DNA from: an uncultured Gammaproteobacteria bacterium
Lineage (GTDB): Bacteria > Patescibacteriota > Microgenomatia > Levybacterales > UBA12049
Assembly: GCA_964515545.1 (NCBI GenBank)
Contig: CAZERI010000001.1
Location: 2,803 to 66,802 of the forward strand
Reading direction: 5' to 3'
Length of the DNA: 64,000 nucleotides
Shown here piece after piece: positions 42,183 through 61,535 of this stretch (its first letter is position 1; each line of letters begins with the position of its first letter). The position numbers were made by a program, and so were the translations under genes. The notes below the pieces were generated by a model. It made no database searches. It saw nothing but the letters and a program-made list of their open reading frames with translations, and was not told where the DNA came from.

Positions 42183-42270
42183 GGAGGGGTCGCATAGCTG
42201 GTCTAGTGCGCACGCTTGGAAAGCGTGTATGCCCGCAAGGGTATCGGGGGTTCGAATCCCCCCTCCTCCG
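42183..42270 (+). tRNA. tRNA-Ser (GGA)
   Basis: GGAGGGGTCGCATAGCTGGTCTAGTGCGCACGCTTGGAAAGCGTG + long variable arm + GGGGG-TTCGAAT-CCCCC + CTCCTCC-G. Anticodon loop TTGGAAA. Discriminator G. Confidence 0.85.
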
Positions 42271-42392
42271 CCTTCGGTCGCCAAAGTGACCTACGGCGGA
42301 CATAGTCCGCTTATAAAGTCGCGAAGGAGACTAATACCATATAAAAAAGACTCCATGTACATGGAGTCTTTTTTAATTTACCCATAAAAGCA

Positions 42393-42845
42393 TTACTTAC
42401 TAGTTGGTTCTACTTTTTTTGCCCCTGATTTGCTTGCTACCCTAATTTTCTTTGGTTCAGCTTTTTGGACTTTTTTGAATGTTAGTTTGAGAACACCATC
42501 TTCAAGCTCTGCTTTAGGCTCCTCATCACTTACAACTCCCTGAGGAAGACGGAAGGAATAATTGTAGGATGATGCCATTGAAGTCATGAAGTATCGTCTT
42601 TTATCTTTTTCCTCCTGACGATCCTCACTAGCTGCTGTAACGCGGACTACTCCTTCATCAATGGAGACGTCAACGTTATTTCCCGAAATACCAGGAAGTG
42701 CAGCTTCTGCAACGATTGATTCTTCAGTCTCATAAAGGTTGAGACCCTGCCCCATCATACGAGAAATACCAGGGAGAGTTGGGACGTCCCAATCATCATC
42801 AAGCATGGATTGAAGATTCCATGGATTCCAGCGGATTATTGCCAT
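42393..42845 (-). CDS. Hsp20/alpha-crystallin family small heat-shock protein
   Basis: MAIIRWNPWNLQSMLDDDW ... GVLKLTFKK. 150 aa. Confidence 0.9.
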   Translation of the reverse strand: MAIIRWNPWNLQSMLDDDWDVPTLPGISRMMGQGLNLYETEESIVAEAALPGISGNNVDVSIDEGVVRVTAASEDRQEEKDKRRYFMTSMASSYNYSFRLPQGVVSDEEPKAELEDGVLKLTFKKVQKAEPKKIRVASKSGAKKVEPTSK

Positions 42846-42937
42846 GTAGATTCACCTCCTTTAATCAAGTTTGACTTGATTAGCACTTTTATACCACGAG
42901 TGCTAATATCTTGTCAAGAGGCGCTCCGGACAAAGGC

Positions 42938-43028
42938 GGAGGAGACAGGATTCGAACCTGCGCGAGCCCTTTTAGAGGCTCAGAGGCTTAGCATGCCCCC
43001 GCAATGGACCAACTATGCGACTCCTCCC
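42938..43028 (-). tRNA. tRNA-Ser (GCU)
   Basis: Reverse complement GGAGGAGTCGCATAGTTGGTCCATTGCGGGGGCATGCTAAGCCTC + long variable arm + GCAGG-TTCGAAT-CCTGT + CTCCTCC-G. Anticodon loop ATGCTAA. Confidence 0.85.
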
Positions 43029-43037
43029 AAAAAACGT

Positions 43038-43109
43038 ACCTCTGGCGGGAATCGAACCCGCAGCTCAGGATCCGGAATCCCGTGGTTTATCCATTAGCCT
43101 ACAGAGGCG
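43038..43109 (-). tRNA. tRNA-Arg (CCG)
   Basis: Reverse complement GCCTCTGTAGGCTAATGGATAAACCACGGGATTCCGGATCCTGAGCTGCGGGTTCGATTCCCGCCAGAGGTA. Anticodon loop TTCCGGA. T-arm GCGGG-TTCGATT-CCCGC. Confidence 0.8.
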
Positions 43110-43138
43110 ATTCTCTATCTACAACTACTTTAACGAGG

Positions 43139-43222
43139 CGGAGGGAGGGAGATTTCCGACTCGCTTTGCTTCCTGGACTGCCTTGCCTATGGCTCGGCTT
43201 GCTTCTCATCTCCCTCCTCTCG
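43139..43222 (-). pseudogene. decayed tRNA-Ser-like remnant (partial duplicate of the adjacent tRNA-Ser 3' and 5' ends)
   Basis: GCGGAGGGAGGGAGATT (17 nt identical to the 3' end of tRNA-Ser(CGA)) followed by degenerate T-loop TCCGACTC, and ...CATCTCCCTCCTC resembling the 5' acceptor. No cloverleaf. Confidence 0.35.
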
Positions 43223-43231
43223 TTGTTTTGC

Positions 43232-43322
43232 GGAGGGAGGGAGATTCGAACTCCCGGTCTAGAAAAAGATCCAGACGGCGGTTTTCGAAACCGCTGCACT
43301 AAACCACTATGCGATCCCTCCC
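43232..43322 (-). tRNA. tRNA-Ser (CGA)
   Basis: Reverse complement GGAGGGATCGCATAGTGGTTTAGTGCAGCGGTTTCGAAAACCGC + long variable arm + GGGAG-TTCGAAT-CTCCC + TCCCTCC-G. Anticodon loop TTCGAAA. Confidence 0.85.
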
Positions 43323-43335
43323 ACTTTTTCTTAGT

Positions 43336-43409
43336 ACTCTCGAGAAGATTCGAACTTCCGACCTCAACGTCCGCAACGTTGCGCTCTATCCAACTGAGCT
43401 ACGAGAGCT
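43336..43409 (-). tRNA. tRNA-Arg, anticodon GCG by my reading (needs tRNAscan confirmation)
   Basis: Reverse complement GCTCTCGTAGCTCAGTTGGATAGAGCGCAACGTTGCGGACGTTGAGGTCGGAAGTTCGAATCTTCTCGAGAGTA. Perfect anticodon stem CAACG/CGTTG with loop TTGCGGA. Confidence 0.65.
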
Positions 43410-43472
43410 TATTAAGGCTAAAATAGTGTGTGTATTGTACCCAATATTATGATGTGAAGCAAATAACTATAG

Positions 43473-44066
43473 CTATAAACGATGCTCTAAGGGGAAATTC
43501 TTCTCAAGCCAGCTGGCTGATTTTTCCATAAAGGTAGGCTTAACATACTCCCTATAAGGAAGGAAGTGTAAAAGGACATCGCGAACTTGTTCCTGATGCA
43601 TATTCCCCAAGACAAGAGTCAACTCTCCAGGATACCACGCTTTGGTTCCGACGATCAGAGTAGTTACTCCATTTTGGGTCTTAAAATAAAAGTCATAAAG
43701 CTCTTGCCATAAGAAAAAATGGTCCTCTACCATGAGTCCCTCTGAAGTTACTTTATAGTGGAAGTCATGTGGCGCAACAGTATTAAGAGCATATACCAAA
43801 AATACAAGAGCCAGTACCAGTGCCATGAGGACGTATTGCGAAAAGAGGAAAAGAATAATCTCTAGCAAAAGCATAATGATTAAAATATTGAGGAAATACT
43901 CCCTATTCTTTTTCTGAAAAGGTCTTCCTGGCGCAGACCATGCTAGAAGAGTTTTTAATTCATAAAGGGAAGAGTCTTCAAAGTCTGGTGTGAAAGATCC
44001 AGTGGCATGTTCTGGGAGAAGCTCTTCATGGGGAGCTTCAATGAGTAGTTCTTTATTTGATTCCAT
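43473..44066 (-). CDS. membrane protein, probable bPH_2-type (TM hairpin plus PH-like domain), hypothetical
   Basis: Two TM helices (ILIIMLLLEIILFLF / LMALVLALVFLVYAL) followed by a soluble domain. Confidence 0.5.
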   Translation of the reverse strand: MESNKELLIEAPHEELLPEHATGSFTPDFEDSSLYELKTLLAWSAPGRPFQKKNREYFLNILIIMLLLEIILFLFSQYVLMALVLALVFLVYALNTVAPHDFHYKVTSEGLMVEDHFFLWQELYDFYFKTQNGVTTLIVGTKAWYPGELTLVLGNMHQEQVRDVLLHFLPYREYVKPTFMEKSASWLEKNFPLEHRL

Positions 44067-44150
44067 ACTTTTACTCTATAAGAGTAAAGCGTTCCGGTCA
44101 AGTCGTGCCTTGTTCTTGCTTTGGCTGATCTGATATACTTTGTATCCGTT

Positions 44151-44240
44151 GGAGAGGTCGCATAGTGGTCTAGTGCGGATGTCTTGAAAACATCTGAGGG
44201 TTCACGCCCTCCGCGAGTTCGAATCTCGCCCTCTCCGCCA
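44151..44240 (+). tRNA. tRNA-Ser (UGA), CCA encoded
   Basis: GGAGAGGTCGCATAGTGGTCTAGTGCGGATGTCTTGAAAACATC + long variable arm + GCGAG-TTCGAAT-CTCGC + CCTCTCC-G-CCA. Anticodon loop CTTGAAA. Confidence 0.85.
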
Positions 44241-44308: not shown

Positions 44309-46600
44309 ATGTCCTTTTCTGCCCGATTACTACGCTTTCTTTGTGCTTTTATTTTATTCATTGCAGTAGCTCCTCTACCAGCTTTTGCTCAATCCGTTCA
44401 AACGCCTTTTCAACAATCTGAACAGACCTCTAAACAAATTCAAGTAATCCTGGTAGGATTTAGTGGAACCGCAATTTGTGCATTATCAGGAATCGATATT
44501 TTCCATCCAGGCTATAACTGTCTTGGACAAAAGATAATTAAGGATGGAACTACTCCCTCCTCACAAATTAACACCCAGCCTCTGGGAGCACTTGGACTTC
44601 TAACCAGCGGGATAGGAGCTCTCTATCAAAAGCCATTTAGCACTGAAGATTCTGTAAAGTATTTTGCTAATAATTTCGGCATCGCTAAAAAAACGTTAGC
44701 CCAAGGCCAACCAAGCACTAATCCTCAGGATGGAACTACGGGAGGTTTTCAATCATTTTCATTCGTCCAAGATATGTTCTTAACGCTAAGAAACATCAGC
44801 TTCCTTTCACTTGTATTCGTTTTTATTTTAATAGGAATTGCTATTATGCTCCGTTTTAAGATCGATCCTCGTACAGTCATGAGTCTCCAAAATCAAATTC
44901 CAAAAATTATTATCGGCATTCTCATGATCACTTTCTCTTTCTCCATTGCAGGGATATTGGTTGATGGAATGTGGATTGTGACCTATTTTGGAATAAATAC
45001 CATAGGAAGTATCGCTCAAAAGGATTGCACTGATGGGACAGATGGAACTACATTTGCCGGAGTTGCCACTCGACAGATTTTAAATAACCCTGTCGCCTTT
45101 ACCTCACATGTCTTCTCTGATGCTGGATGCTTTGGCACTCTTAGTGGGATAGGTGGTATATCAAAAGATATAGGATCTGCTATGAGCTCGGGAATTACTG
45201 ATGCCATACTCACCTCACTCAACTTTGATAATCAATCTGACCTAAACTGCGGAACAGGTTTAAAAATTGGGATTTTAGGAGGAAGTGGAAGTATTGGAGA
45301 CTGTATCCAAAAAGGAATTTACAGCTTTCTAACCTGGCTTATAAGTATTGTTGCATTTCTTATCGTCCTTATCGCCATTTTTGTAGCCCTTATTAGACTA
45401 TGGATAACGTTAGTGAAAGCATATGTGTATATCATCCTTGATGTTATCACCGCACCCCTTCAAATTTTGGTTGGTATACTTCCTGGTGGAAAAATGGGAT
45501 TTGGCAAGTGGTTCCGCCATATTACCGGCTACCTTCTCCTCTTCCCTGCCAGTGCTATACTTATTTTCCTTGCTTTAGCTTTTGCTCTCAATCCTGGACT
45601 GAAAGATCCCTCAAATACCACCGATACGTTTTTCCCTCCATTAATTGGCGTACCTGGCACATCAGGCAATTTAGGGGTTCTTGTCGCTTTTGGTCTTATT
45701 ATGATCTTGCCCGAAGCACTTGAAATGATTAAAGAAGCTTTGCAGATTAAGAGTAATAGTAGAGTCTCATCAGCAATTGTCGGCGGATTTGGCCGTGGAG
45801 TCGGCCCTGCGCAAGCACTTGGAGGAGTAGGAAGCGGACTCTTCGGTAAGGATAAGAATGGCAATCCTCAAGTTGGAAGACTTATTGCGGGACGTATCTG
45901 GACAAATAAAATGGGTCCCCAATCTGCCATGGGGAATAAACGCCCTATGAGCTGGTATTATCGAACCCGACGAGATTTTGATGATCGTAAGCGAAGACTC
46001 ATTAATGAAGACAGAGGAAATATTAGACAGCAAGCTGAACAGTATGCACAACATCAAGCACTTTATAACGGGAGAGACCGTACCGAGGCATTTACCGAGT
46101 TTATGGATAAGCATTACTATCAGAGGCAGTCGTCTCACCAGGCTAATCAAGCCACGAATAATAATCCTAATCAGCACGCCAATGCTGCTACCCCTGGCGC
46201 AGGGGGTTCTCCAGCACCTTCTACGGGAAGTCATCCTCACGGAGGAACTTCTACAGGCGGACATGGAGGAGCAGCTTCTAGCGGTACTACCCATACTCCA
46301 TCAGGAGCTTCGGGTACATCTGCCACTGGACACACGTCTTCACCTCCTACAGAATCTCCTCCAGTCGGAGGAGCTACGCCGGGAGCAGGAGATAACTCTC
46401 CTATTGCCCGCTTAAAAGTCAAGTGGTTTGGAAATGATCTTAAGTTTGAAGATGGAACTGGTACAGTATTTGCCCAAAAATCAGGTACTAGCTATAAAGT
46501 AGAGACCCCTACATCAACTGGCATTACTACCAAGTATCTGAGTCGATCAGACTTTAATCGCTGGCTAAGTGATCACAACTACGAAGAAGTCACCGCTTAA
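44309..46600 (+). CDS. polytopic membrane protein, VirB6/TrbL-like T4SS channel component candidate with Gly/Ser/Thr-rich C-terminal tail
   Basis: Signal peptide, then at least 5 long hydrophobic segments (e.g. IYSFLTWLISIVAFLIVLIAIFVALIRLWITLVKAYVYIILDVITAPLQILVGILPG). C-terminal 250 aa low-complexity (GGTSTGGHGGAASSGTTHTPSGASGTS). Confidence 0.55.
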   Translation: MSFSARLLRFLCAFILFIAVAPLPAFAQSVQTPFQQSEQTSKQIQVILVGFSGTAICALSGIDIFHPGYNCLGQKIIKDGTTPSSQINTQPLGALGLLTSGIGALYQKPFSTEDSVKYFANNFGIAKKTLAQGQPSTNPQDGTTGGFQSFSFVQDMFLTLRNISFLSLVFVFILIGIAIMLRFKIDPRTVMSLQNQIPKIIIGILMITFSFSIAGILVDGMWIVTYFGINTIGSIAQKDCTDGTDGTTFAGVATRQILNNPVAFTSHVFSDAGCFGTLSGIGGISKDIGSAMSSGITDAILTSLNFDNQSDLNCGTGLKIGILGGSGSIGDCIQKGIYSFLTWLISIVAFLIVLIAIFVALIRLWITLVKAYVYIILDVITAPLQILVGILPGGKMGFGKWFRHITGYLLLFPASAILIFLALAFALNPGLKDPSNTTDTFFPPLIGVPGTSGNLGVLVAFGLIMILPEALEMIKEALQIKSNSRVSSAIVGGFGRGVGPAQALGGVGSGLFGKDKNGNPQVGRLIAGRIWTNKMGPQSAMGNKRPMSWYYRTRRDFDDRKRRLINEDRGNIRQQAEQYAQHQALYNGRDRTEAFTEFMDKHYYQRQSSHQANQATNNNPNQHANAATPGAGGSPAPSTGSHPHGGTSTGGHGGAASSGTTHTPSGASGTSATGHTSSPPTESPPVGGATPGAGDNSPIARLKVKWFGNDLKFEDGTGTVFAQKSGTSYKVETPTSTGITTKYLSRSDFNRWLSDHNYEEVTA

Positions 46601-46613: not shown

Positions 46614-49388
46614 TTATTTAAGACTTTTTAAGAGGGCTTTAAAGAAGTTCTTCCCTGTACTTGCCGTCGTTTTAGCAACAGCTATTCCTCCATCTCTAAA
46701 GCCACGTCGCACCTCACCAACATTGGCGATACTGCGAAGCCACTTAATATCTTCTCTCGTAAAGAAGCGTCCTGGGATCACGGTATTTTTGAGATCATTT
46801 TCATCTACTAAAAGATCTCCTGGTATGATTTCAAGCGCCCTGATAACAGCCTCTATAGTCGCTCCATCCCATTTAGGATAGGGGCTATTGTGGTCGATAT
46901 GAGAATAAATATCTGCTGCTACTCTTCCTAAGGCTATTTGTTTGAACATCTGAATTCTTCCTTTATCTGTGTCTATTAGACGTGGATCTACGACATGATT
47001 GAGGACTTTCCCTGTCGGATTCCCATCTTTATCCTTTATTTCCTTACCATCCTTATCATACTGAGGCAGACGCATCCAGAACTGCTCCCGATCAATAAGC
47101 TCATGTCCGAACATAGAATCAGCAAGTGACATATCTGCAAATACATGAGGCGTACCATTCACATCAACCTGAGGAAGACCTTGATGGATCTTAGGATCAT
47201 ACTCAACGATATCTCTGACTTGCTTGCTATAAAGATTAGGCCACCCCTGATATCCATAACGGAGAGGCTTAAGGAATCCTTCCTGAATTTTTTGACCAAA
47301 AGATGCTGGATCGTAGAGTATCCCTCCAAATCGAGCCTGTTCAACTATTTTATCCAAATGCAACTCATCTGCTCCGATGAAGGACTTATATTCCTGTACC
47401 CAGCGAAAAATACCATTGTTGTAAAGGTTGACTTCACTCAGATCAGGGAATGTCAATTCACTAAGGATACGTCTGGATTCAGCAGTCTCTTCCTCAACCT
47501 TTCGCTCTTCAGCCTCTGTAAGAGTTCCCATACCATTTCTCTCATCAATTTCAAGTGCTGGAGGAGTAATACGGGCTAAATCTTCAATAATTTCGCGAAC
47601 TAGCTTCCCATCCTGATTACGAATCGAATCCAGGTAATTTACTCCCAACGTCTTAATGAGGCCGACATTGTACATGTTCCCAAACATCCCACCCTTGCTA
47701 GGGCCAGCTAATTTTTTCCGGTAATTTTGGAAACGAAGCCATTTCGCTTGAGCATCATAAGCAGTTCCTCCTAAATCGTTACGAGTTGCAATTCCTGTCC
47801 AGCGAGTTGTCAAAAATGCATAGTCTTCTGCCATCTCAGTGGTGTCTGTATCCATCACAAAGCCTCCATTCTCACGGAGGTATTCCCCATCTTTACCCCT
47901 CAGATACATGTGATACTTATGACCGATAGCGTCTTGGATCAGTCCCCGTACCATTCCTCTTACACGAGGATCTACCTGAGCTTGAGGGAAGATATTCATA
48001 TACTTAATGAATGCTTCTCTATTTTTTACTTTGCCGTCAGGGCCGAATATCGTATCTAAATTCGCATTAGAGATATATTTTTCCTCCAGGTGACCGAGAC
48101 TTTCTCCTGAAAATCTATTAGATTCATTTTCCTTACCAGCCAAATGTGAACGCACTCTTTCAAAGCCTTTTCGGGTAAAGAAGTCTGAATTCCCGCCTAT
48201 CATCTCTTGAAGCTTTTCATAATCTGCTAAGTGATAATATGCAGCGATAGCCGTAGCGATACTTTGTCCCATTCGGGTATCCTGCTTCTTATAATCTCTT
48301 ACATATTTTCTGTGCTCATGATGCCCCTCGCCTTCATGTCCCTGATGGGCTTGGAGAGTCTCTCCTTCATGAAGCGGTGGATCAAGTTTGGCTTTAGCCT
48401 CCATTGGCATTTCCAAAAGCCAATGCCACATACTTTTCCCATTCCAAGTATTACGAGTCATATTGTTGTCTTTGAAAATAGACTGCATCACTCCGTCTAT
48501 TCCGCCCTCATCACTCATACCCTTTCCACCTGTTCGGTAGGTAATATCACGACCGCGTACGATCATACGGACGAATAATTCACGACGAATTTGTTGGGCA
48601 AGCTCGGCATGAACTGCTCCATCCTGATCAGTAAAGAACTTCTCATCATCTTCGAGGATCTGACTCATGTGAATATGTCTATTACCAAAAGGGATACCTA
48701 CTTTAGCAAAGTAGTTGACTGGAGTATCTGGGCCATCCTCTCCCTCAAAAAAGACCATACGCTTACGAATCCAGCGCAGGAAATTAGCTTCATTAATGAC
48801 TGTTCTTTCACGTTCTTTTCCATCCTCATCTATATAAGTGCCTTCTTTTTTAAAAAGCGGGAACTTGTCCTGGAACTCCGGCTCATACTCAGCAATTGAA
48901 CGTACCAGCTCATTAATAGTATTTGGCTGCCTGTAAGATTTGTTTAGCTCCTTACGTTCTTTTGAGGTTAATTCATCATCATCTGCTAATGCTCTTCTTG
49001 GGTCTATAAACTGTCTATGGAGAGACTCAGGAGATTGTGCTCCAGAAGAAGCAGGATTTTCTAAGCGGGGTTCTACAAGACTTTGAAGAATTCTATTTCT
49101 TAGGAGTGCTTGTTCCTGAGGAGTAAGTTCACGACCAAGGTTTGCTTCCTGAGCAGCTCTCTCCTGACTCATGATCACATCAAGCATCTGCCTCATATTC
49201 TCCGTAGCTGGCTGTGGAGTAGACGGTGCTGCGCCTGTTAATTCATCAATTTCCCATGCGGGAATCTCTGGTGTAGGACTACTTGATGCCATAAATTCTC
49301 CTGTACCACTAGCATACGATCTATGAGGCTGTGAAGTCAACGCATCCCCCTCCCCTGGGACAAAGTTGTGAGGTCTATATTCTTTCAT
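46614..49388 (-). CDS. large (924 aa) soluble protein of unknown function
   Basis: Long ORF with coding-like composition, no TM and no motif I can assign. His-rich patch HQGHEGEGHHEHRK. Downstream of, and co-oriented with, the ATPase-wHTH gene. Confidence 0.65.
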   Translation of the reverse strand: MKEYRPHNFVPGEGDALTSQPHRSYASGTGEFMASSSPTPEIPAWEIDELTGAAPSTPQPATENMRQMLDVIMSQERAAQEANLGRELTPQEQALLRNRILQSLVEPRLENPASSGAQSPESLHRQFIDPRRALADDDELTSKERKELNKSYRQPNTINELVRSIAEYEPEFQDKFPLFKKEGTYIDEDGKERERTVINEANFLRWIRKRMVFFEGEDGPDTPVNYFAKVGIPFGNRHIHMSQILEDDEKFFTDQDGAVHAELAQQIRRELFVRMIVRGRDITYRTGGKGMSDEGGIDGVMQSIFKDNNMTRNTWNGKSMWHWLLEMPMEAKAKLDPPLHEGETLQAHQGHEGEGHHEHRKYVRDYKKQDTRMGQSIATAIAAYYHLADYEKLQEMIGGNSDFFTRKGFERVRSHLAGKENESNRFSGESLGHLEEKYISNANLDTIFGPDGKVKNREAFIKYMNIFPQAQVDPRVRGMVRGLIQDAIGHKYHMYLRGKDGEYLRENGGFVMDTDTTEMAEDYAFLTTRWTGIATRNDLGGTAYDAQAKWLRFQNYRKKLAGPSKGGMFGNMYNVGLIKTLGVNYLDSIRNQDGKLVREIIEDLARITPPALEIDERNGMGTLTEAEERKVEEETAESRRILSELTFPDLSEVNLYNNGIFRWVQEYKSFIGADELHLDKIVEQARFGGILYDPASFGQKIQEGFLKPLRYGYQGWPNLYSKQVRDIVEYDPKIHQGLPQVDVNGTPHVFADMSLADSMFGHELIDREQFWMRLPQYDKDGKEIKDKDGNPTGKVLNHVVDPRLIDTDKGRIQMFKQIALGRVAADIYSHIDHNSPYPKWDGATIEAVIRALEIIPGDLLVDENDLKNTVIPGRFFTREDIKWLRSIANVGEVRRGFRDGGIAVAKTTASTGKNFFKALLKSLK

Positions 49389-49457
49389 GGCCAGAGTATA
49401 TGGCCAGAAGCATCCTAGTCCTTGAGAAAATCCTTATAAAATCCTTTTAGAGCGCCT

Positions 49458-50771
49458 TTACTGACTAAATTTTACGCCTCTTCCTTTAAGAGTATGGAGA
49501 AAATGAGGATGAGTGGGGTTACTTTCTATTTTTCTTCTTAGTCTAAAAAGAAGCTGATCTATCGCCTGATCTGAAATCCCTTCACTTGATTTATCTTCTT
49601 TCCAAACGATATGGATGATAGTCTCTCTGTCTACTACCTCTCCGACGTGCTGGAGCAGATAACGGAAAAGTCTAAATTCCCCCTTCGTTAGATCATCTGA
49701 GAACACTACCTCTCCCCGCTTAATGGTATTGGTAGCCTCATCATAGACGAACTTAGCCTGATTTTGGCTGAATAGCCCTGCCTCTATGGCATCTTTAAAA
49801 AGAGGGAGGCAAAGCGTATTAGCCTTTACAAGACCTACTGCTTCTAAGTAAGGATTAGTACTAAAATCACCAGCCATGATGCTGGCCTGCTCCGAAGGAC
49901 TTAATTCCTGCCAAAGACTGATAAGTGCTGTCTGAAGTGTTTTTTGATTGAGTAAGAATTTAGATATATTATCCGGCATCTCCGAAAGGGTGATGAGTGC
50001 TTCAAGCGAAACAATTAAAAGCCTCATATGTCCTCCTGTTACATATATCAACTCTTCCTTTACTCGCTGGGGAACTTTCTTACCCACTAACTTCTCCAGA
50101 TAGCTAATCCGAAATTCACTACTCTCTCTGTCTAGTAGCGGAAGATAAATAGTATGTCCTACTACAAAGTCACTAAAAATAGATATGATCTGTGGTTCAA
50201 GCGTCTCCTCAAGTGGTCTTGCAACTGAAAAAATAGCTGCAAAACGATACTTAGCCTTATCTTGAAGTGAGCGGAGGAGGATAAAAAAACGGTCATTTAC
50301 CTGAGGAATATAATCATCGAAATTCTGGCAGAGAAAAATTACTGTTAACTTTTTTTCAATTGCCAAATACTCAATCGTATTTTTGAGATACTGAGCATAG
50401 ACCAGCTCATCGTTATAGGAAAGAGCATCTTTGAAAAGAGCGTCTGTTTTTTCATATTCTTCACTCATCTCCCGCTCGCGAAGAGAATTTAAAAGACACA
50501 AAAAAATATACTTCAAGATATCAGGATATGATCTTTGTCTTACTTCAGAAAAGTTAATCATGACAAAATGGACGATGCCATGATATTTAGGGAAATGCCT
50601 CAGCCTTACTGCCTTGTTATAAGCCAAAAGTCCTAATATATTTGATCTTCCCACCCCAGGCAGGCCAATGAGTTGAGAGGAATTCCCTTCTTTAATAAAG
50701 CTAACTGTCTTTTCAAGTTCGTTATCCCAGCTTTCCTCAGGATAAAGTGACTCGAAGTATTTTACTTCCAT
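49458..50771 (-). CDS. one-component regulator: N-terminal STAND/AAA-like P-loop NTPase fused to C-terminal OmpR/PhoB-type winged-helix DNA-binding domain
   Basis: P-loop IGLPGVGRSNILGLL. C-terminus LTKGEFRLFRYLLQHVGEVVDRETIIHIVWK...DQLLFRLRRKIE...LHTLKGRGVKF matches Trans_reg_C. Confidence 0.7.
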   Translation of the reverse strand: MEVKYFESLYPEESWDNELEKTVSFIKEGNSSQLIGLPGVGRSNILGLLAYNKAVRLRHFPKYHGIVHFVMINFSEVRQRSYPDILKYIFLCLLNSLREREMSEEYEKTDALFKDALSYNDELVYAQYLKNTIEYLAIEKKLTVIFLCQNFDDYIPQVNDRFFILLRSLQDKAKYRFAAIFSVARPLEETLEPQIISIFSDFVVGHTIYLPLLDRESSEFRISYLEKLVGKKVPQRVKEELIYVTGGHMRLLIVSLEALITLSEMPDNISKFLLNQKTLQTALISLWQELSPSEQASIMAGDFSTNPYLEAVGLVKANTLCLPLFKDAIEAGLFSQNQAKFVYDEATNTIKRGEVVFSDDLTKGEFRLFRYLLQHVGEVVDRETIIHIVWKEDKSSEGISDQAIDQLLFRLRRKIESNPTHPHFLHTLKGRGVKFSQ

Positions 50772-50849
50772 ACATAACTATTGTATGGCATCCTCCTAGG
50801 ATGTTCAAACCAACTTGCAAAGTAATCTCAAGCTATCTACTATGAATAT

Positions 50850-52760
50850 ATGCGCAAAGTTCTACTTTTATTGGTCTCCCTTTTCTTTAGCATTATTTAT
50901 CTTACTAACTCTACTATTGCAGAAGCAGATTCAGTCACAGTAGGCGACAATGCTACACTCACGTCGACCTTCCCCCTGTTTGATAATAATAAGGTTGTCA
51001 GCGACGTAGAGTTTGTCATAAATACATCATCTGACGGTAGTGGTACAGATCTTGACACAATCCGTTATCTTATTGGTGGAGATGGTTGTAAATTGCAGAA
51101 TTCAGAAACTCAAAATTTTAGCAATCTCAAATGCTATTTTAATAAAAGATACGCTCCTGATACCCAAGTTACGATTCAGCAAGATTTCCAAACAGGCTCA
51201 CTAACCCCCGACTCCTTCCCTACAACCTATTATTATTTTGTACGCAAGACAAATGGAGGACCTTATAGCCAAGTCATACCTCTAACCCTTAATCAACCTT
51301 CCGATGTTGCAAAAATCAACCTATCTGCATCAGGAGCTGTATGGGGCAAAAAGGGAACAATTACTCTAGGCAATCTCCCTAAGGCATTTTCTCAACAAAA
51401 AGCTACTATTACTATCCACCGAAACGCTGGCGGAATGGATGATAAGCACTTCTCAGTATTTGTCAACGGCGATAAGGAGAAGAGCAAGGCTATCTGCTCC
51501 AGTCCTTCAGGAGATGACATCTTTGCCTTTAATGATAAAGACTGTTCAGACGGTAAGTTTGTTGTTGATGTCAATTATCTGGTCTCTGTATTCCCACAGC
51601 CCGCAACAGTAGTTAATATCCCTGTTCCTCAAGCATCACTTCAGGATACCTATACACTCTCTCTTGCAGGACCTAATACTGCATCTACTACTCTCGTTGT
51701 ATTATATAGTCCAACTGGTGTAACTCTGGAGGCTAGTCAAACTTCGGTGACTACTGGGACAAAAGTTTCATTTACCGCAAGTGGTTGCCCTGATGGATCA
51801 AAGATTGATTTTGCTTATGGATCTGATACCTCAACAAAAGATGTCAAAGATGGTAAGGCAACTTTTGAAAAGACATTGGAGGGACAAGGCGGTGAAGCTT
51901 TTTCAGTTACTGCTACCTGCCAGGCAACCGGCAGAAGGTCAAATACTGTCTCTGTAACAATAGATAAGCCAGGTGAGGAAAGAACAGAAATTGATCCTCC
52001 TCTTCCTATCGCTGCTGATACCCCCTTCACCATCATTGTTCATGGTATGGAAAGTGATGGGCAATGCTACTTTATCGAAATAAAAGATGTGAACGCTGAT
52101 AAATATCTTGATCCTGGAAATAGGGACGCTCTCCTGGGGGGGGATTGTAGTAGTGGAGTAGATGATGGAGGCAAAAATCCCGCTTCAGTCACTCTCGGAG
52201 GGACAGCTCACCATACTGAGCAATTATATGACCTCTTTAAGTCCAATAATGATACTTATACTGTAACTTTTGATAAAGGTCTCCCTGATGGGGCATATCA
52301 ATTCAGACTTTATACATCCAACAAAGGGACCAGCCCCTGCTGGCCATATGACTGCCGAAATGAGGCTGATGACCCTCATCACTCTGCCGACCTTGATTTT
52401 ATTATTGGGAATGGGGAGTTTACAGCAATTGCTGCTCCCTCTCCTGCTTGCGGAGAGACCAACGACGTCGGAGAATGTACCTCTGTAAATACGGCTATCG
52501 GCCCGCTCCCAATCCAACTCTCAGAATTTACTAAGACTATTTTTTCTGTCCTTCTTAGTATCTCAGGCATTATCATACTCTACATTGTCATTCGTTCTGG
52601 CTATATCCTCCTCTTCTCCCAAGGAAATGCTGAGAAAGTAAAAGAAGCGCAAGATAGACTAACCTCTGCTGTTGTTGGCCTCCTCTTTCTCATCTTCTCC
52701 CTCATTGTCCTCCAGACTATAGGTGTTGATATACTCCATATACCTGGATTCGGCGCATGA
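50850..52760 (+). CDS. large secreted protein with C-terminal VirB2/TrbC-like pilin domain (pilin-fused adhesin/minor pilin candidate)
   Basis: Signal peptide. About 540-aa extracellular Cys-containing region. The C-terminus TIFSVLLSISGIIILYIVIRSGYILLFSQGNAEKVKEAQDRLTSAVVGLLFLIFSLIVLQTIG is homologous to the downstream pilin paralogs. Confidence 0.65.
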   Translation: MRKVLLLLVSLFFSIIYLTNSTIAEADSVTVGDNATLTSTFPLFDNNKVVSDVEFVINTSSDGSGTDLDTIRYLIGGDGCKLQNSETQNFSNLKCYFNKRYAPDTQVTIQQDFQTGSLTPDSFPTTYYYFVRKTNGGPYSQVIPLTLNQPSDVAKINLSASGAVWGKKGTITLGNLPKAFSQQKATITIHRNAGGMDDKHFSVFVNGDKEKSKAICSSPSGDDIFAFNDKDCSDGKFVVDVNYLVSVFPQPATVVNIPVPQASLQDTYTLSLAGPNTASTTLVVLYSPTGVTLEASQTSVTTGTKVSFTASGCPDGSKIDFAYGSDTSTKDVKDGKATFEKTLEGQGGEAFSVTATCQATGRRSNTVSVTIDKPGEERTEIDPPLPIAADTPFTIIVHGMESDGQCYFIEIKDVNADKYLDPGNRDALLGGDCSSGVDDGGKNPASVTLGGTAHHTEQLYDLFKSNNDTYTVTFDKGLPDGAYQFRLYTSNKGTSPCWPYDCRNEADDPHHSADLDFIIGNGEFTAIAAPSPACGETNDVGECTSVNTAIGPLPIQLSEFTKTIFSVLLSISGIIILYIVIRSGYILLFSQGNAEKVKEAQDRLTSAVVGLLFLIFSLIVLQTIGVDILHIPGFGA

Positions 52761-53086
52761 AAGACTTACTAGCACTTACTATTGGGACTACCCCTATTGA
52801 GGCCCCTAATGGAATCCCTACAGGAGGCCTGCCAAAAGCCTATGATATCGGCTCAAGTATCCTTCTGCTTATCTTTGTCGTTGCCATCCTCCTAGCCCTT
52901 GCTTTTATCATCTGGGGGAGTATCAGATGGATTATGTCAGGAGGAGATAAAACCAAAGTTCAAAGCGCCCGCAATACGCTTATTTATGCTGTGGTAGGGC
53001 TTATTTTTATTTTCCTTTCTTTCCTTATCATCAACCTCATCACGTACTTCTTCAACGTTCCTTCTGTCACTACTTTACCCCAGTAA
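52757..53086 (+). CDS. VirB2/TrbC-like T4SS pilin paralog 1
   Basis: Two hydrophobic helices separated by IWGSIRWIMSGGDKTKVQSARNTLIYAVVGL. Overlaps the upstream stop. Confidence 0.6.
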   Translation: MKDLLALTIGTTPIEAPNGIPTGGLPKAYDIGSSILLLIFVVAILLALAFIIWGSIRWIMSGGDKTKVQSARNTLIYAVVGLIFIFLSFLIINLITYFFNVPSVTTLPQ

Positions 53087-53131
53087 ATTTGCCTATTGAC
53101 AACTCTTTTAGACTCTGCCTAATATAGATAT

Positions 53132-53551
53132 ATGTTAAACAAATTGAAATCTACCACAGGTCTTACAGCTCTTGCTTTTGCTGCTTCTACTGCTGTGCCG
53201 ATGCTTGCTTCTGCAGCTACATATGATCTTTGTCCTAGAAAATCAGGCGGAGACTTTAGTGTACTCTGTAATCTTAACTTTAACGGTACGTTTGGCAATA
53301 TCATCACTATTGTCTTTATCGTTGCTATTATCCTCGCTCTTGCTTATCTTATCTGGGGTGGTATCAAATGGGTCCTCTCAGGTGGTGACAAAGCTAAAGT
53401 GGATGCTGCCCGTCAGGCAATCGTCGCTGCTATTGTAGGGCTTGTAATCGTCTTTTTGGCCTACTTTATCATTAATATCGTTGTCCCTATCTTTGTCCCT
53501 AATTTTAGCCTACAAACCCTTTCTCTCCCTACTATCAACCAGCAGCAGTAA
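53132..53551 (+). CDS. VirB2/TrbC-like T4SS pilin paralog 2
   Basis: Signal peptide (AVPMLASAAT), then IITIVFIVAIILALAYLIWGGIKWVLSGGDKAKVDAARQAIVAAIVGLVIVFLAYFIINIVV. Confidence 0.65.
   Translation: MLNKLKSTTGLTALAFAASTAVPMLASAATYDLCPRKSGGDFSVLCNLNFNGTFGNIITIVFIVAIILALAYLIWGGIKWVLSGGDKAKVDAARQAIVAAIVGLVIVFLAYFIINIVVPIFVPNFSLQTLSLPTINQQQ
53287..53436. repeat. 150-bp tract identical to 54134..54283 (pilin core, copy A)
   Basis: Read directly: TACGTTTGGCAATATCATCACTATTGTC...GCAATCGTCGCTGCTATTGT is identical in both copies. Flanks are diverged, about 85 percent downstream and unrelated upstream. Confidence 0.9.
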
Positions 53552-53606
53552 TCTTCTGAGAAATCTTTTGTCTTGTTATTCTTTTTGTATTTGTTACTAT
53601 TAATAT

Positions 53607-53933
53607 ATGTTTCATGATTGGGAAGGCTGTCTAGCAGGGCCTGACAATACAATTCCTACTATCCAGTGTGTTTTCCCTCTTTTTCAAAACATCGTTTCAG
53701 CTGCTTTGCTATTAGGAGGAGTAACTGCGCTTATTTTCCTTATCTGGGGTGGATTCAAGCTTCTGAGATCCCAAGGCGACCAAAAGCAAGTCCAGGGAGC
53801 CCGCCAGACGATAACCTATGCTCTTATTGGGCTTATCCTTATCTTCCTCTCATTCTTTATCATAAATACCATAGCCACTCTTACTGGCTTTGAATGTATA
53901 AAGACACTAAGTAGCTTCCAGGACTGTAAATAA
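53607..53933 (+). CDS. VirB2/TrbC-like T4SS pilin paralog 3
   Basis: LLLGGVTALIFLIWGGFKLLRSQGDQKQVQGARQTITYALIGLILIFLSFFIINTI. Confidence 0.6.
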   Translation: MFHDWEGCLAGPDNTIPTIQCVFPLFQNIVSAALLLGGVTALIFLIWGGFKLLRSQGDQKQVQGARQTITYALIGLILIFLSFFIINTIATLTGFECIKTLSSFQDCK

Positions 53934-53945
53934 GAGCTAGGTTAC

Positions 53946-54473
53946 TTGACAAGCCCCTCTGCCTCCACCTATCATGGACTCATGCTTAAGAAAGCATTAT
54001 CCTTTATTGGATTCTCCGGCTTTATTGGTATCCTTTCTGGCATACTGCCTCTGCCTGCTCTAGCTGGGATTTGTCCTACCAGTACTGGAGGGGCGAACTT
54101 TAGCGGACTTTGTAACCTCAGTTTCTCTGGTAATACGTTTGGCAATATCATCACTATTGTCTTTATCGTTGCTATTATCCTCGCTCTTGCTTATCTTATC
54201 TGGGGTGGTATCAAATGGGTCCTCTCAGGTGGTGACAAAGCTAAAGTGGATGCTGCCCGTCAGGCAATCGTCGCTGCTATTGTGGGGCTTATCTTTGTTT
54301 TCCTGTCCTACTTTATCATCAATATCGTTGTGCCTATCTTTGTCCCTGGCTTCTCCCTGCAAAAGCTTTCCTTGCCAACTATTAATGGGGACGGCGGAGA
54401 CCATAGTAGCGATCCACTTGAATGTTCAAGGGCCGGAGGATCTTGGGACTCATCTACAAATACCTGTAACTAA
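53946..54473 (+). CDS. VirB2/TrbC-like T4SS pilin paralog 4 with extra C-terminal Cys-containing extension
   Basis: The core is identical at protein and DNA level to paralog 2. Unique N-terminal region and C-terminal tail DGGDHSSDPLECSRAGGSWDSSTNTCN. Confidence 0.65.
   Translation: MTSPSASTYHGLMLKKALSFIGFSGFIGILSGILPLPALAGICPTSTGGANFSGLCNLSFSGNTFGNIITIVFIVAIILALAYLIWGGIKWVLSGGDKAKVDAARQAIVAAIVGLIFVFLSYFIINIVVPIFVPGFSLQKLSLPTINGDGGDHSSDPLECSRAGGSWDSSTNTCN
54134..54283. repeat. 150-bp tract identical to 53287..53436 (pilin core, copy B)
   Basis: Same as above. Even the spurious antisense/alternate-frame ORFs (53172.. and 54139..) share identical peptides. Confidence 0.9.
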
Positions 54474-54486: not shown

Positions 54487-54855
54487 TTAGCTATTAGCTA
54501 CCTGCTTTTCAGTCATTACCTGCTGTAATTGTCCACGAATACTTGAAAGATTAGTCTGAGGATCTCCTATCACTGTGTGCTCCAACTTCTCCATTTCCAT
54601 CTTTGTCTGCTCTTTTATAGTTTTATAAAAGGCTTCATCGACATTCGTCTCAGGAGGAAGCTTGTCTATAGCCATCTGCACATTGCGTTGATAGTGAAGT
54701 GAGAAAATCGAGTCATAAAGACCTCGGATAATTGCCTCAATGGCTGCTGATCGTTCCAGGTCAAGGGTAGGCAGTACTCTCAGGAGATCTGCCTTATAAA
54801 GGGTATCAAAAGGAAGTGTCTTGATGATATCTTCGAGCTTGAGATTGCTATCCAT
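54487..54855 (-). CDS. small cytoplasmic protein, member of a local two-gene paralog pair, unknown function
   Basis: 122 aa. IIKTLPFDTLYKADLL...IRGLYDSIFSLHYQRNVQMAIDK is paralogous to the next gene. Confidence 0.5.
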   Translation of the reverse strand: MDSNLKLEDIIKTLPFDTLYKADLLRVLPTLDLERSAAIEAIIRGLYDSIFSLHYQRNVQMAIDKLPPETNVDEAFYKTIKEQTKMEMEKLEHTVIGDPQTNLSSIRGQLQQVMTEKQVANS

Positions 54856-54876
54856 ATATTTATCCAGCTGTGGAGA

Positions 54877-55236
54877 TTAGTGAGTAGCTGGAGACTTTTT
54901 TTGCAAAATTTGATCTATCTTAGATCTAGCATCAGATAAATCTACTGAGATAGTAGTATCTACAAATTCGCTAAGCAGATCCTGCTCTGTCTTCTCTTTA
55001 ACTTTTTTATAGAAATCTTTTGTTAAAGGGTTGTCTTTATCATTACTCTTCTCCATTTCAAGACGAATATTCTCTTGGAGTTTTAGCTCATATAATCCAT
55101 CATATAAGTCCCAAATAACGCGCTCTATTGAGAACTTCTGATCAGGATCAAGATTATCAAATGAACCCATCAGGCTTTCCTTAAATTCATTATCAAAAGG
55201 GAGAATCTTTATAATATTTTTAGTCGTTAATTCCAT
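54877..55236 (-). CDS. small cytoplasmic protein, paralog of 54487..54855
   Basis: MELTTKNIIKILPFDNEFKESL...VIWDLYDGLYELKLQENIRLEMEK. Start 2 nt after the stop of the 972-aa gene (coupled). Confidence 0.5.
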   Translation of the reverse strand: MELTTKNIIKILPFDNEFKESLMGSFDNLDPDQKFSIERVIWDLYDGLYELKLQENIRLEMEKSNDKDNPLTKDFYKKVKEKTEQDLLSEFVDTTISVDLSDARSKIDQILQKKSPATH

Positions 55237-55237
55237 A

Positions 55238-58156: not shown

Positions 58157-58171
58157 ATAGTATCAGCATAG

Positions 58172-59530
58172 TTGAAGTTACCTCTCTTTTCAAGTAAGAT
58201 TGATCCTATGGAAACCTCTGCCGAAACACCCATCACACCACCAGTGGAGGAGGTATCTCCACCTACTACAGGATCCTCTTCAGAGACACCTGACGAATCC
58301 CCTACCGATACGCCTGAAGGTGGAGCTGACACCTCAGAGAAGAAAAGAGATGTAAGCTCTGAACAACAAAGACGCGAGTTAGGATATGTAGCCGATACTC
58401 TGCGAAATAGAAAAATAGAAGCTGCTCTTGCCAAGCTAGAAACCGGCGAGTCTCTGAGCGAGGGAGAAAAAAAACTTATTGGACTTCATAATTTAGTTAC
58501 TAAAGAAGAGGGAGACTATACAAGCGAGGGTGCTGAAGGGGTGGATAACAGCATTCCCTTTACAGAGGGTAAGCCTGTCTTTATTGAGGTCAGCTCAGGG
58601 GTAAAACGTCAGCTTCTTTCGATTACAGGACGGCACACAACAGCAGATAATCAATCCTATTTTTCCTGCCAATTCAAAGCTGTCGACGAAGGGACAATCT
58701 TTGGGAGAGACATCCCTGTAAGTGAGGTCATAAAAGCACAATATCTTTCTGAAGCAGCAGTGATTGCCCAGGATTTTACGCCCGCAGAGCAGCAGCTTCT
58801 CAATCTCCACAACGATATTCTCCGCGATGGCGAATCTGCGCTAACATCACAAAAGACAGAAGAGATAAATGAACTTATTACTAACGTTTCTGAGGAGCAA
58901 GGGATCATCACATCAGGAGATATTGTCGGCCTTCTGGACTCTCAAGCTGAGACTATTCCCCCCGAACAACAGGCACAACTCCAACAGGCTCGAGCAGCAC
59001 TTGAGAAGATGAATGTTATAACAGATGGATCGCAAATGGCTGAAGTACTGACTACTCTTGGCATTAGCCAAGAAGGCTTAGCTACTGAAACGAGTAAGGT
59101 ATCTGAAGAACTCCAACAACTTCAAGAGCAATTAGCCAAAACCCCAGACGATGAAGCACTCAAAGAACAACTTACTAAGAAGCAAAAGTACCTAGAAACT
59201 ATGCAATCCATCCAAGAACAAGTCGCTTCGGGGCTAGACTTTAGCAAATACTTCGAAAACGTTAGAACAGGAAAAGTAACACCTGAACAGCGTCAAGCCT
59301 TAGCTGAAGCTATGCGTAAAGGAGATATCCAAGGAATGCTTGCTGCTATGCCCGAATTCGCTGATGATCCAACTGATACTCCCGAAGAAAAAGCAGAAAA
59401 AGAAGCCCAAAGAAAGGCATTGGCTGAAAGGATGGCCACTGGCGGGCTTATAGGCCTGGGAGCCATCCTCGGTATCATGTGGCAAGTCGTCTCTGTTGAA
59501 TCCAAAGAACTCAAGAAATCCCTGAGATAA
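58172..59530 (+). CDS. acidic coiled-coil protein with C-terminal TM anchor, unknown function
   Basis: E/Q-rich, PT-rich N-terminus. C-terminal GGLIGLGAILGIMWQVVSV. Divergent from the 972-aa gene with a 15-bp gap. Confidence 0.5.
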   Translation: MKLPLFSSKIDPMETSAETPITPPVEEVSPPTTGSSSETPDESPTDTPEGGADTSEKKRDVSSEQQRRELGYVADTLRNRKIEAALAKLETGESLSEGEKKLIGLHNLVTKEEGDYTSEGAEGVDNSIPFTEGKPVFIEVSSGVKRQLLSITGRHTTADNQSYFSCQFKAVDEGTIFGRDIPVSEVIKAQYLSEAAVIAQDFTPAEQQLLNLHNDILRDGESALTSQKTEEINELITNVSEEQGIITSGDIVGLLDSQAETIPPEQQAQLQQARAALEKMNVITDGSQMAEVLTTLGISQEGLATETSKVSEELQQLQEQLAKTPDDEALKEQLTKKQKYLETMQSIQEQVASGLDFSKYFENVRTGKVTPEQRQALAEAMRKGDIQGMLAAMPEFADDPTDTPEEKAEKEAQRKALAERMATGGLIGLGAILGIMWQVVSVESKELKKSLR

Positions 59531-60868: not shown

Positions 60869-60874
60869 ATCTTT

Positions 60875-61534
60875 ATGAAAACATCTGCCCAGAAAAATCA
60901 CAATTCAACCCAAAAATTCACTGAGATTGTTGATATCGTTGATGATATCGTTCTCTTCTCAGGAGGAACTGCCGGCATTGTTATTGAGATTACTGCCAGT
61001 AACTTTGCCCTTCTTTCTAAAAAAGAACAGGATGCTAAAATCTATGCCTATGCCTCTCTTCTCAATTCGCTTACGTTCCCTATCCAAATTATCATTCGTA
61101 ACAAACGTATGGATATCAGCTCATACTTAAAGGATCTCGAGGAGCAGGAACTAGGAACAAAAAATGATCTTCTGGCTCGTCACATCGCTATGTATCGTGA
61201 CTTTGTCCGCGAGATGGTAAAAGTTAATGTAGTTTTAAATAAAGCCTTCTATGTCGTCATAGGATTTTCTTCTCTCGAGGCAGGCCTAAGCGGAGTAAAA
61301 TCACAAGTGGCTAGAAATGAAGTCGAAAAAGAAGCATTTGTCACTGCAGCTCAGAAGGCGTTATATAACAAAGCTGATTCTGTCCATCAACAGCTTGGCA
61401 AGCTGGCTGTGACTGCCAAAACACTTGAGAAGGAAGAGCTCATTAAACTCTTCTATGATATTTTTAATGATGCTCCTATCCAAGGTACCCAGGCTGATTC
61501 AGATATTAATACGCCTTTAATAAAACCTGCCTAA
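60875..61534 (+). CDS. hypothetical cytoplasmic protein immediately upstream of virB4
   Basis: 219-aa ORF, coupled to the VirB4 start (1-nt gap). Confidence 0.5.
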   Translation: MKTSAQKNHNSTQKFTEIVDIVDDIVLFSGGTAGIVIEITASNFALLSKKEQDAKIYAYASLLNSLTFPIQIIIRNKRMDISSYLKDLEEQELGTKNDLLARHIAMYRDFVREMVKVNVVLNKAFYVVIGFSSLEAGLSGVKSQVARNEVEKEAFVTAAQKALYNKADSVHQQLGKLAVTAKTLEKEELIKLFYDIFNDAPIQGTQADSDINTPLIKPA

Positions 61535-61535
61535 T

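Follow-up and report, generated by a model that had tools for sequence, protein, structure and literature searches.

In a 64-kb stretch of DNA (hereafter the window) from contig CAZERI010000001.1, which belongs to a genome of the patescibacterial order Levybacterales, two adjacent genes of a type IV secretion system (T4SS) locus are accompanied by a 40-bp array of phased direct repeats. One of the genes, which we call regA, encodes a 437-amino-acid (aa) protein that ends in an OmpR-type winged helix, and the other, which we call BIG, encodes a 924-aa protein. We hold with moderate confidence that regA is a dedicated regulator that binds the array and controls BIG and, in the loci in which regA is inverted, also itself and the T4SS operon. 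The features on which this proposal turns are listed here in window coordinates.

46614-49388, minus strand: BIG, 924 aa (open reading frame, ORF, and translation)
49389-49457: gap between regA and BIG, 69 bp
49395-49400, minus strand: -10 box TATACT of promoter P1, 20 nt after the element and 6 nt before the first BIG start codon, ATG1 (49388)
49421-49460, minus strand: phased direct repeats TAAAGGCGCTC TAAAAGGATTT TATAAGGATTT TCTCAAG, candidate regA operator, 40 bp
49458-50771, minus strand: regA, 437 aa (ORF and translation)

The phased element upstream of BIG

An earlier note on this DNA gave the same outer coordinates, BIG length, and 69-bp gap for the two genes and described them as co-transcribed. 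Co-transcription is not confirmed: the gap holds a conserved promoter-like element that moves with BIG when the gene order changes. We found no terminator in the regA-BIG gap, so read-through from regA is possible.

The gene order was compared across the neighborhoods of regA homologues of 42 to 86% identity, which were collected by exact-protein look-ups and by a scan of one genome per species. The species-level scan identified 244 genomes with a regA relative, and 80 loci were retained, most of which bear the label Levybacteria or Levyibacteriota. The full set comprises 86 loci drawn from over 80 species-level genomes, and the ORFs of these loci were searched with the window proteins and with a BIG profile. 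Throughout this set, regA is flanked on one side by the pilin array and on the other by the pair formed by BIG and a VirB6-like gene. Pilin genes stand beside regA in 77 of the 86 loci, the remaining 9 being short or cut contigs, and regA was never found outside the T4SS locus. The earlier note had raised a role as regulator of the T4SS locus, and the gene-pair co-occurrence seen here supports it. The VirB6-like protein is encoded in 70 loci, always tail to tail with BIG or with BIG2, and the PrgI, TraC, and VirB4 genes were reached in 50 to 53 loci within the available flank.

The loci have two layouts, and the sole difference between them is the inversion of regA. In type I (34 loci, including the window), regA and BIG run in one direction toward the convergent VirB6-like gene, and the pilin, PrgI, TraC, and VirB4 genes run the other way from regA. 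In type II (42 loci), regA is divergent from BIG and is followed in the same direction by the pilin, PrgI, TraC, and VirB4 genes; the gap between regA and the first pilin gene is often 1 to 46 bp, so regA heads the T4SS operon there. These 42 loci contradict the idea of an obligate regA-BIG operon. In 19 type II loci the BIG position is occupied by BIG2, a large ORF of 880 to 1600 aa. Profile-profile comparison of BIG with BIG2 (hhalign) gives a probability of 1.3%, which is not significant; the two are not detectably homologous and were not grouped as one family.

The consensus of the element is TGTAAGCATAT TGTAAGCTTTT TGTAAGGTAAA TATCAAG, which is three to four direct repeats (TGTAAG) with an 11-bp period. 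Of 69 unique regions upstream of BIG or BIG2, 66 contain the element according to a weight matrix that was trained on the BIG sites and refined iteratively across all loci; the element is thus kept in front of both genes despite their lack of detectable homology. From the element to the start codon, the layout across loci is 20 to 21 nt, a -10-like TAnACT, 6 to 9 nt, and ATG (usually ATGAAAGA). In the window, the element begins at the regA stop codon. In the close relatives L087, L088, and L089, whose regA proteins are 73 to 82% identical to that of the window, a footprint stands out clearly in the gap between regA and BIG, where the conserved block is TAAAAGGATTTTATAAGGATTT(T/C)(C/T)TCAAG, about 20 variable bases, TATACT, 6 nt, and ATG. 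An extra small gene separates regA from BIG in L088; the entire block remains with BIG there.

The element is also specific. The 64-kb window has one site, with a score of 21.9 bits, and the next best position scores -1.9. Among 2.98 million scanned positions, 97 sites reach at least 20 bits and 109 reach at least 14 bits; 72 of the latter are upstream of BIG or BIG2, and most of the others are beside regA on cut contigs or are a second site in the same locus. About 21 loci have such a second copy on the far side of the VirB6-like gene (L012 17107-17146, L024 16404-16443, L048 17055-17094, L029 9000-9039, L037 2936-2975, and about 15 more), upstream of variable genes that encode either 250- to 420-aa proteins with a disordered N terminus or 110- to 140-aa helical proteins followed by a large ORF. 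The window has no second site. WAGGAY and AAGGATTTT were also tried as the repeat unit and were rejected, as neither shows window-wide enrichment; only the complete phased array, when compared between loci, gives a convincing repeat signal.

The element also occurs outside the T4SS locus. An unbiased scan of metagenome contigs with the pattern TGTAA-N6-TGTAA-N5-ATATCAAG matched 118 stretches, from which 80 loci were examined. Of these sites, 19 to 21 are further cases that adjoin regA or T4SS genes, about 35 are low-scoring and probably chance matches, and about 26 are high-scoring sites on small contigs without regA. Inspection of 17 regA-less sites showed mostly the element, about 20 nt, and a -10 box, with a start codon a few bases further on in several of them, so that P1-type promoters are real units. 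The regA-less contigs with the element include L091, L139, L099, L106, L108, L129, L149, L150, and L168. L091 has two sites (3760-3788 and 4523-4551), and its products include a VirD4/TraG-type coupling protein (E value of 4.9e-34) and an HTH_36 protein. A sigma-70-family protein is encoded on L139. The regA-less contigs may be mobile elements (plasmids, integrative and conjugative elements, or phages) of Levybacteria hosts.

The element is one part of a set of predicted promoters and start sites around regA and BIG.

49290-49292, minus strand: second BIG start, in-frame ATG2 at codon 33, with a Shine-Dalgarno (SD) sequence AGGAG at 49298-49302 (read from sequence)
49290-49340, minus strand: internal promoter P2, TTGACT at 49335-49340, 18 nt, TATGCT at 49311-49316 (promoter scan)
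50772-50849: spacer between regA and the divergent 636-aa pilin-fusion gene, 78 bp
50780-50808, minus strand: putative regA promoter, TTGAAC, 17 nt, TACAAT, 8 nt to ATG (promoter scan)
50815-50843, plus strand: putative pilin-fusion gene promoter, TTGCAA, 17 nt, TACTAT, 6 nt to ATG at 50850 (inferred from sequence)

P1 has no canonical -35 box, and its geometry would imply a leaderless BIG transcript. An exact TTGAC[ATC] is present at the 5' end of BIG or BIG2 in 63 of 66 loci, in most of which it is followed after 17 to 18 nt by a -10-like box, then by an AGGAG SD and an in-frame ATG. The frame from ATG1 stays open, with the TTGAC in frame 0 in 53 of 58 loci. Based on the open upstream frame and on the P2, SD, and ATG2 arrangement, BIG probably has two starts, a leaderless ATG1 served by P1 and an SD-led ATG2 served by P2. 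Alternatively, the annotated start of BIG may be 32 codons too far upstream. We had considered an N-terminal peptide shared by BIG and BIG2, LT..Y..G.IFM, as a secretion signal and dropped it, since the likeness is largely due to the DNA-level TTGAC -35 box, -10 box, AGGAG SD, and second ATG. The 5' extension that holds this peptide stays in frame.

The regA promoter is conserved in L087 and L089, and a -10 box 6 to 9 nt before the regA ATG recurs across loci L001 to L086; regA therefore appears to be leaderless generally. The CAAGTT core of the pilin-fusion promoter is conserved in relatives as well. A -10 box 6 to 9 nt from the ATG at regA, at the pilin-fusion gene, and at BIG P1 suggests that leaderless transcripts may be widespread in the T4SS locus. 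The 78-bp spacer, where the earlier note had proposed to look for a binding motif, holds little besides the two back-to-back promoters and has no repeated or shared motif, and the predicted target is instead the phased repeats before BIG. A palindrome in the spacer, CATCCT-N3-AGGATG, is not conserved in L087 or L089 and was rejected as a site. The regA promoter of type II loci (TTGATA, 17 to 18 nt, TACAAT, 6 nt to ATG) is itself the element read as its reverse complement, so a protein bound to the array there would occlude the regA promoter while standing upstream of the BIG promoter.

The regA and BIG proteins

The domains and motifs of regA map to the window as follows.

49461-49754, minus strand: OmpR/PhoB-type winged helix-turn-helix, regA residues 340-437 (Pfam, PDB sequence, and Foldseek)
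49767-50771, minus strand: AAA+ base and helical lid, regA residues 1-335 (Foldseek; AAA_35 and AAA_16 in relatives)
50325-50339, minus strand: Walker B strand IFLCQ, regA residues 145-149 (alignment)
50643-50666, minus strand: Walker A-like loop GLPGVGRS, regA residues 36-43 (alignment)

The C-terminal Trans_reg_C domain named in the earlier note is well above the Pfam cut-off (residues 360-434, 57.5 bits against a cut-off of 26.2, E value of 1.4e-15) and is matched in 20 of 20 regA relatives. The best PDB sequence match of the winged helix is WalR/YycF (E value of 1e-12). In Foldseek comparisons, it superimposes on OmpR-family DNA-binding domains (among them YycF, OmpR, and ToxR) with a template-modelling score (TMt) of 0.70 to 0.77, and on YycF (2d1v) with a TMt of 0.76 and a root-mean-square deviation of 2.1; RstA is also matched. 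Full-length homologues, about 440 aa in size, number over 555, and an alignment of 120 homologues was used for motif counts. Across these 120 sequences the recognition helix, DQAxDQLxFRLRxKIE, has almost no variation. When both window proteins were searched against Pfam, NCBIfam, and PADLOC, Trans_reg_C was the only real match. There is no Response_reg match in Pfam, the NCBIfam response-regulator models align by their C-terminal third only and far under cut-off, and no BTAD, TPR, or WD40 match was found in Pfam; the chain ends in the winged helix. PADLOC gives for regA just a marginal match to PDC-S04 (E value of 0.0014) over 60 residues of the winged-helix region.

Residues 1-335 of the window protein have no Pfam match, and the assignment of this part comes from a structure model and from relatives. 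The AlphaFold2 model built from the 120-sequence alignment has a mean predicted local distance difference test score (pLDDT) of 90.4 and a predicted template-modelling score (pTM) of 0.85. Its top Foldseek matches are ORC4 (7tjh_D, E value of 4.4e-6), Orc1/Cdc6 (2qby), PAB2304 (2qen), RFC, and DnaA; the AAA+ matches have a probability of 1.0 and E values of 4e-6 to 1e-4, with whole-chain TM scores of merely 0.3 to 0.5. Weak AAA_35 and AAA_16 matches are present in 5 to 6 of 20 relatives, and a few relatives also reach weak AAA_22, ORC3_N, or nSTAND matches. Judged from the model, the N-terminal module is an ORC/Cdc6-like AAA+ base with a lid and not a typical STAND protein with sensor repeats. 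Thus, the AAA part of the earlier designation "STAND/AAA NTPase" stands, and the STAND part, in its typical sense, does not.

The nucleotide-binding motifs of regA are altered throughout the family. The Walker A motif is GxPGxGRS, and at position 42, the site of the Walker A lysine, 117 of the 120 sequences have arginine, 2 have lysine, and 1 has glutamine, so the canonical GxxxxGK[ST] does not apply. The Walker B strand does not match hhhhDE: it is FLFDR (hhhhD-R) in the family, without the glutamate, and IFLCQN in the window protein. Position 149 is aspartate in 105 of 120 sequences and glutamine in 8, which are the window clade, and the next residue is arginine or asparagine. Conserved S182 (112 of 120), R185 (111 of 120), and R/K250 (109 of 120) are at sites plausible for sensor 1, the arginine finger, and sensor 2, as assigned by alignment and secondary structure only. 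Given what is established about Walker A lysine-to-arginine mutants, and with the catalytic glutamate absent, the AAA+ module is less likely to be a motor than to be a scaffold for oligomerisation or, at most, to bind nucleotide while hydrolysing little of it. The nucleotide-gated switch proposed in the earlier note is therefore doubtful, the more so for the window clade, in which the Walker B aspartate is also lost.

For BIG, the absence of detectable domains reported earlier is borne out by searches of Pfam, NCBIfam, PADLOC, and PDB sequences, with the single sequence and with a profile. It is, however, no orphan, as an exhaustive HMMER search found relatives in 249 representative clusters at an E value of 1e-3 or less and in 95 at 1e-30 or less; a third, word-indexed homologue search with the BIG profile added no further sequences. 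The relatives are 800 to 1900 aa long and share mainly residues 365-895, and Pfam shows no added known domain in six long ones (1433 to 1890 aa). The AlphaFold2 model (pLDDT of 81.6, pTM of 0.80) has disordered segments at residues 1-61 and 106-137, and its best Foldseek matches in PDB and BFVD, with E values of 1.3 and 0.033, are not meaningful. BIG is predicted to be soluble; a sequence scan found neither a transmembrane segment nor a signal peptide. The last 40 residues form a basic tail with a net charge of +7. There are invariant polar residues, e.g., an RWTGxAxRND block, and Pfam, PADLOC, and structure and profile searches of BIG reveal no signature of a nuclease, a relaxase, or a defence protein. 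BIG and its nonhomologous positional substitutes are most likely cargo or accessory proteins associated with the T4SS.

Candidate readers of the element

The most likely reader of the element is regA because it is adjacent to the element in both layouts, because the repeat geometry fits its winged helix, because its recognition helix is nearly invariant, and because in type II loci the element overlaps the regA promoter. OmpR/PhoB-family winged helices bind head to tail on direct repeats about 10 to 11 bp apart, often in place of a -35 box, and AAA+ modules of the ORC/Cdc6/DnaA type assemble on arrays of sites. In the mechanism that we propose, the winged helix of regA would bind head to tail to the 11-bp-phased TGTAAG/TATCAAG repeats at 49421-49460, and the ORC/Cdc6-like AAA+ module would provide the protein-protein contacts that assemble several copies of regA on the array, either binding nucleotide without efficient hydrolysis or acting as a pure oligomerisation scaffold. 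The bound array would stand in for the absent -35 box of P1 and drive a leaderless BIG transcript, and P2, inside the annotated 5' end, would yield an SD-led form of BIG from codon 33. In type II loci, regA would regulate its own operon (regA-pilin-VirB4) as well as the divergent BIG. We infer the binding of regA to the element, the direction of regulation, the behaviour toward nucleotide, and the role of BIG; the domain content, the family-wide motif changes, the synteny, and the existence and specificity of the element are observed directly.

Several points weigh against this proposal. The link between regA and the element is drawn from adjacency and repeat geometry, and the matrix scored the same kind of sites on which it was trained, although the second sites and the metagenome sites are a partly independent test of the element. 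The presence of the element on contigs without regA, one of them with its own sigma-70-family gene, means that another factor could read it. P2 is consensus-like, with an exact TTGAC in nearly all loci, which makes an activator of BIG less needed. The changes in Walker A and Walker B make any nucleotide binding by regA uncertain, and export of BIG is conjecture. Finally, in loci arranged as in the window, the scan found no element copy ahead of the pilin genes, so control of the T4SS proper by regA is conjectural there.

The last point also bears on the idea that regA is a master activator or autoregulator of the whole T4SS/pilin operon, with BIG as just an adjacent T4SS component and the element as a part of the BIG promoter that something else reads. 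This is consistent with the 42 loci in which regA is first in the pilin-PrgI-TraC-VirB4 operon with short gaps, and with the back-to-back promoters of regA and the pilin genes in the window. However, the spacer between them has no shared or repeated motif beyond the promoter hexamers, and the only conserved repeat array of the locus adjoins regA on the other side, at BIG. We consider this reading unlikely. A somewhat smaller chance falls to the possibility that another factor, such as an alternative sigma factor or a regulator encoded elsewhere and shared with mobile elements, reads the element as a specialised promoter, and that regA binds other DNA or works mainly by protein contacts. In its favor are the high-scoring copies on regA-less contigs that keep the layout of element, 20 nt, -10 box, 6 nt, and ATG, together with the VirD4-type coupling and HTH_36 proteins of L091 and the sigma-70-family gene of L139. 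On chromosomes, in contrast, the element is tightly linked to regA and adjoins it in both layouts, the loci have no sigma gene, and three to four repeats with an 11-bp period are, from established knowledge, better suited to a winged-helix array than to the -35 contact of a sigma factor.

Two further readings are less probable. The similarity of the regA fold to ORC, Cdc6, and DnaA initiators, which assemble on arrays of sites, could mean that regA and the array are a DNA-processing module, similar to an origin or an oriT, that marks DNA for a T4SS without a relaxase, with BIG as the processing enzyme. The locus is near dnaA/dnaN in relatives, patescibacterial T4SS loci lack relaxases (PMC12102498), and BIG has the invariant polar residues described above, all of which would fit. 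Against it, the fixed spacing of the element to a -10 box and a start codon is promoter geometry, a nonhomologous protein can replace BIG at the same site, BIG has no nuclease or relaxase signature, and the ATPase motifs of regA are degenerate; we regard the DNA-processing role as improbable. We give almost no credence to the suggestion, also made in the earlier note, that regA and BIG are a two-gene anti-phage defence system of an NTPase sensor and a large effector. It draws on the general pattern of an NTPase gene adjoining one for a large protein of unknown function and on the marginal PDC-S04 match, which is not a credible hit. The pair has a variable orientation and does not leave the T4SS locus, BIG matches no effector type in PADLOC, Pfam, or structure searches, and regA has a classical transcription-factor domain.

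Our preferred reading, in which regA acts through the array on BIG, can be extended to a small T4SS regulon of Levybacteria, and this extension we offer tentatively, as a possibility well short of an even chance. BIG, BIG2, and the second-site genes would be substrates or effectors that are switched on by a pseudo-ATPase factor derived from the ORC/Cdc6 lineage of folds, and mobile elements with a VirD4-type coupling protein would synchronise with the host machinery by using the same element.

The T4SS locus, known systems, and significance

The T4SS genes of the window are the following.

44309-46600, plus strand: VirB6/TrbL-like polytopic membrane protein, 763 aa, about 8 transmembrane segments (hydropathy scan)
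50850-54473, plus strand: pilin array, 636-aa protein and four small VirB2-like pilins (Pfam PF18895)
59648-63623, plus strand: T4SS core, PrgI/VirB3-like protein (406 aa), TraC/TrsD-like protein (219 aa), and VirB4 ATPase (695 aa)

As the earlier note had it, regA is divergent to the pilin genes across the 78-bp spacer. The T4SS_pilin domain is C-terminal in the 636-aa pilin-fusion protein, and the four small pilin genes come next. The VirB6-like gene is downstream of BIG and convergent with it, and its L001 orthologue has a weak TrbL match. Pfam matches in the core include PrgI (2.7e-9) and P-loop_TraG (2.6e-26), as well as DUF87 and AAA_10. The window thus has VirB4, VirB3/PrgI, TrsD/TraC-like, VirB2-like pilin, and VirB6-like genes, the same set as in related loci, and this set identifies the setting as the chromosomal MPF-FATA-like T4SS described for Patescibacteria (Quinonero-Coronel et al. 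2025, PMC12102498). That survey reports that VirB6 is scarce in Microgenomatia; in the loci examined here, by contrast, a divergent VirB6-like protein is a constant component, as are regA and BIG. The survey names no regulator, and its text contains neither "winged" nor "OmpR." In the searchable literature, we found no described regulator of this locus and no description of the AAA+/OmpR-winged-helix architecture.

Several other observations concern the surroundings of these genes. Between the pilin array and PrgI, at 54487-59530, the window has four genes without known domains (122, 136, 972, and 452 aa), and the 122-aa and 136-aa proteins look paralogous to each other. This block is common to the closest relatives (the P0002 contig and L089) and mostly missing from other loci, in which the 972-aa and 122-aa proteins have no match, the 452-aa protein is matched in 3 loci, and the 136-aa protein is matched in 2. 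Six tRNA genes, four for Ser and two for Arg, are clustered at 42183-44240. One of them, tRNA-Ser(tga) at 44151-44240, is between the VirB6-like gene and the gene for a 197-aa membrane protein, which has a weak DUF5673 match and is found in 38 of 86 loci. Small genes for four-helix-bundle proteins resembling 23S_rRNA_IVP or bAvd are recurrently inserted around regA and inside the T4SS operon of relatives (L004 9582-9962; L005 9599-9970, 11386-11742, 14306-14692, and 15991-16362; L088 3366-3686), and L004 has a DUF6922/AbiEii pair between regA and the pilin genes. Many records with the Levybacteria-type locus are titled "uncultured Gammaproteobacteria bacterium," and a few name Methylomirabilota, Acidiferrales, Sulfotelmatobacter, or Lysobacterales; mislabelling or mis-binning of these metagenome-assembled genomes is the probable reason.

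The regA protein shares features with three groups of known proteins. Like the OmpR/PhoB regulators (WalR/YycF, OmpR, and PhoB), it has a C-terminal Trans_reg_C winged helix, and its candidate target is a set of direct repeats of about 11 bp at the -35 position, as in pho boxes. Unlike them, it has no receiver domain or phospho-acceptor but a 335-residue AAA+ module for input or oligomerisation, and no partner kinase gene is present in the regA locus. Its best structural matches, ORC/Cdc6/Orc1, DnaA, and the PAB2304-type "ATPase_2" proteins, have the same order of AAA+ base, lid, and C-terminal winged helix, and in the proposed mechanism regA would also resemble them in that multiple protomers gather on arrayed DNA sites. 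It differs from ORC/Cdc6 in that its winged helix is OmpR-type rather than Cdc6-type, its Walker A has arginine, its Walker B has no glutamate (and in the window protein a glutamine), and its context is a secretion locus with promoter geometry rather than a replication origin. SARP/AfsR and MalT-type STAND proteins also combine a P-loop NTPase and a DNA-binding domain in one factor, which the weak AAA_16 and nSTAND matches of regA relatives recall. However, the domain order of regA is the reverse of that in SARP/AfsR and there are no BTAD, TPR, or other sensor repeats, and compared with both SARP/AfsR and MalT, regA is just 437 aa long and has a fold nearer to ORC/Cdc6 than to NB-ARC.

What appears from these comparisons to be new is an AAA+-coupled winged-helix transcription factor that is tied to one secretion locus, with a defined candidate operator and putatively co-regulated proteins of unknown fold. 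A T4SS is essential for epibiotic growth of the one genetically tractable patescibacterium, and to our knowledge, neither the substrates nor the regulation of patescibacterial T4SS is known. The analysis documents a transcription factor in which an OmpR-type winged helix is joined to an ORC/Cdc6-like AAA+ module whose P-loop is naturally degenerate. It also provides testable handles, namely a DNA-binding protein specific to the locus, a 40-bp candidate operator that is precisely defined, and a candidate cargo set of unknown fold, in a large uncultured lineage in which at least 244 species-level genomes have a regA relative. If the tentative regulon described above is real, BIG, BIG2, and the second-site genes would be the long-sought, hypervariable substrates or effectors of the patescibacterial T4SS.

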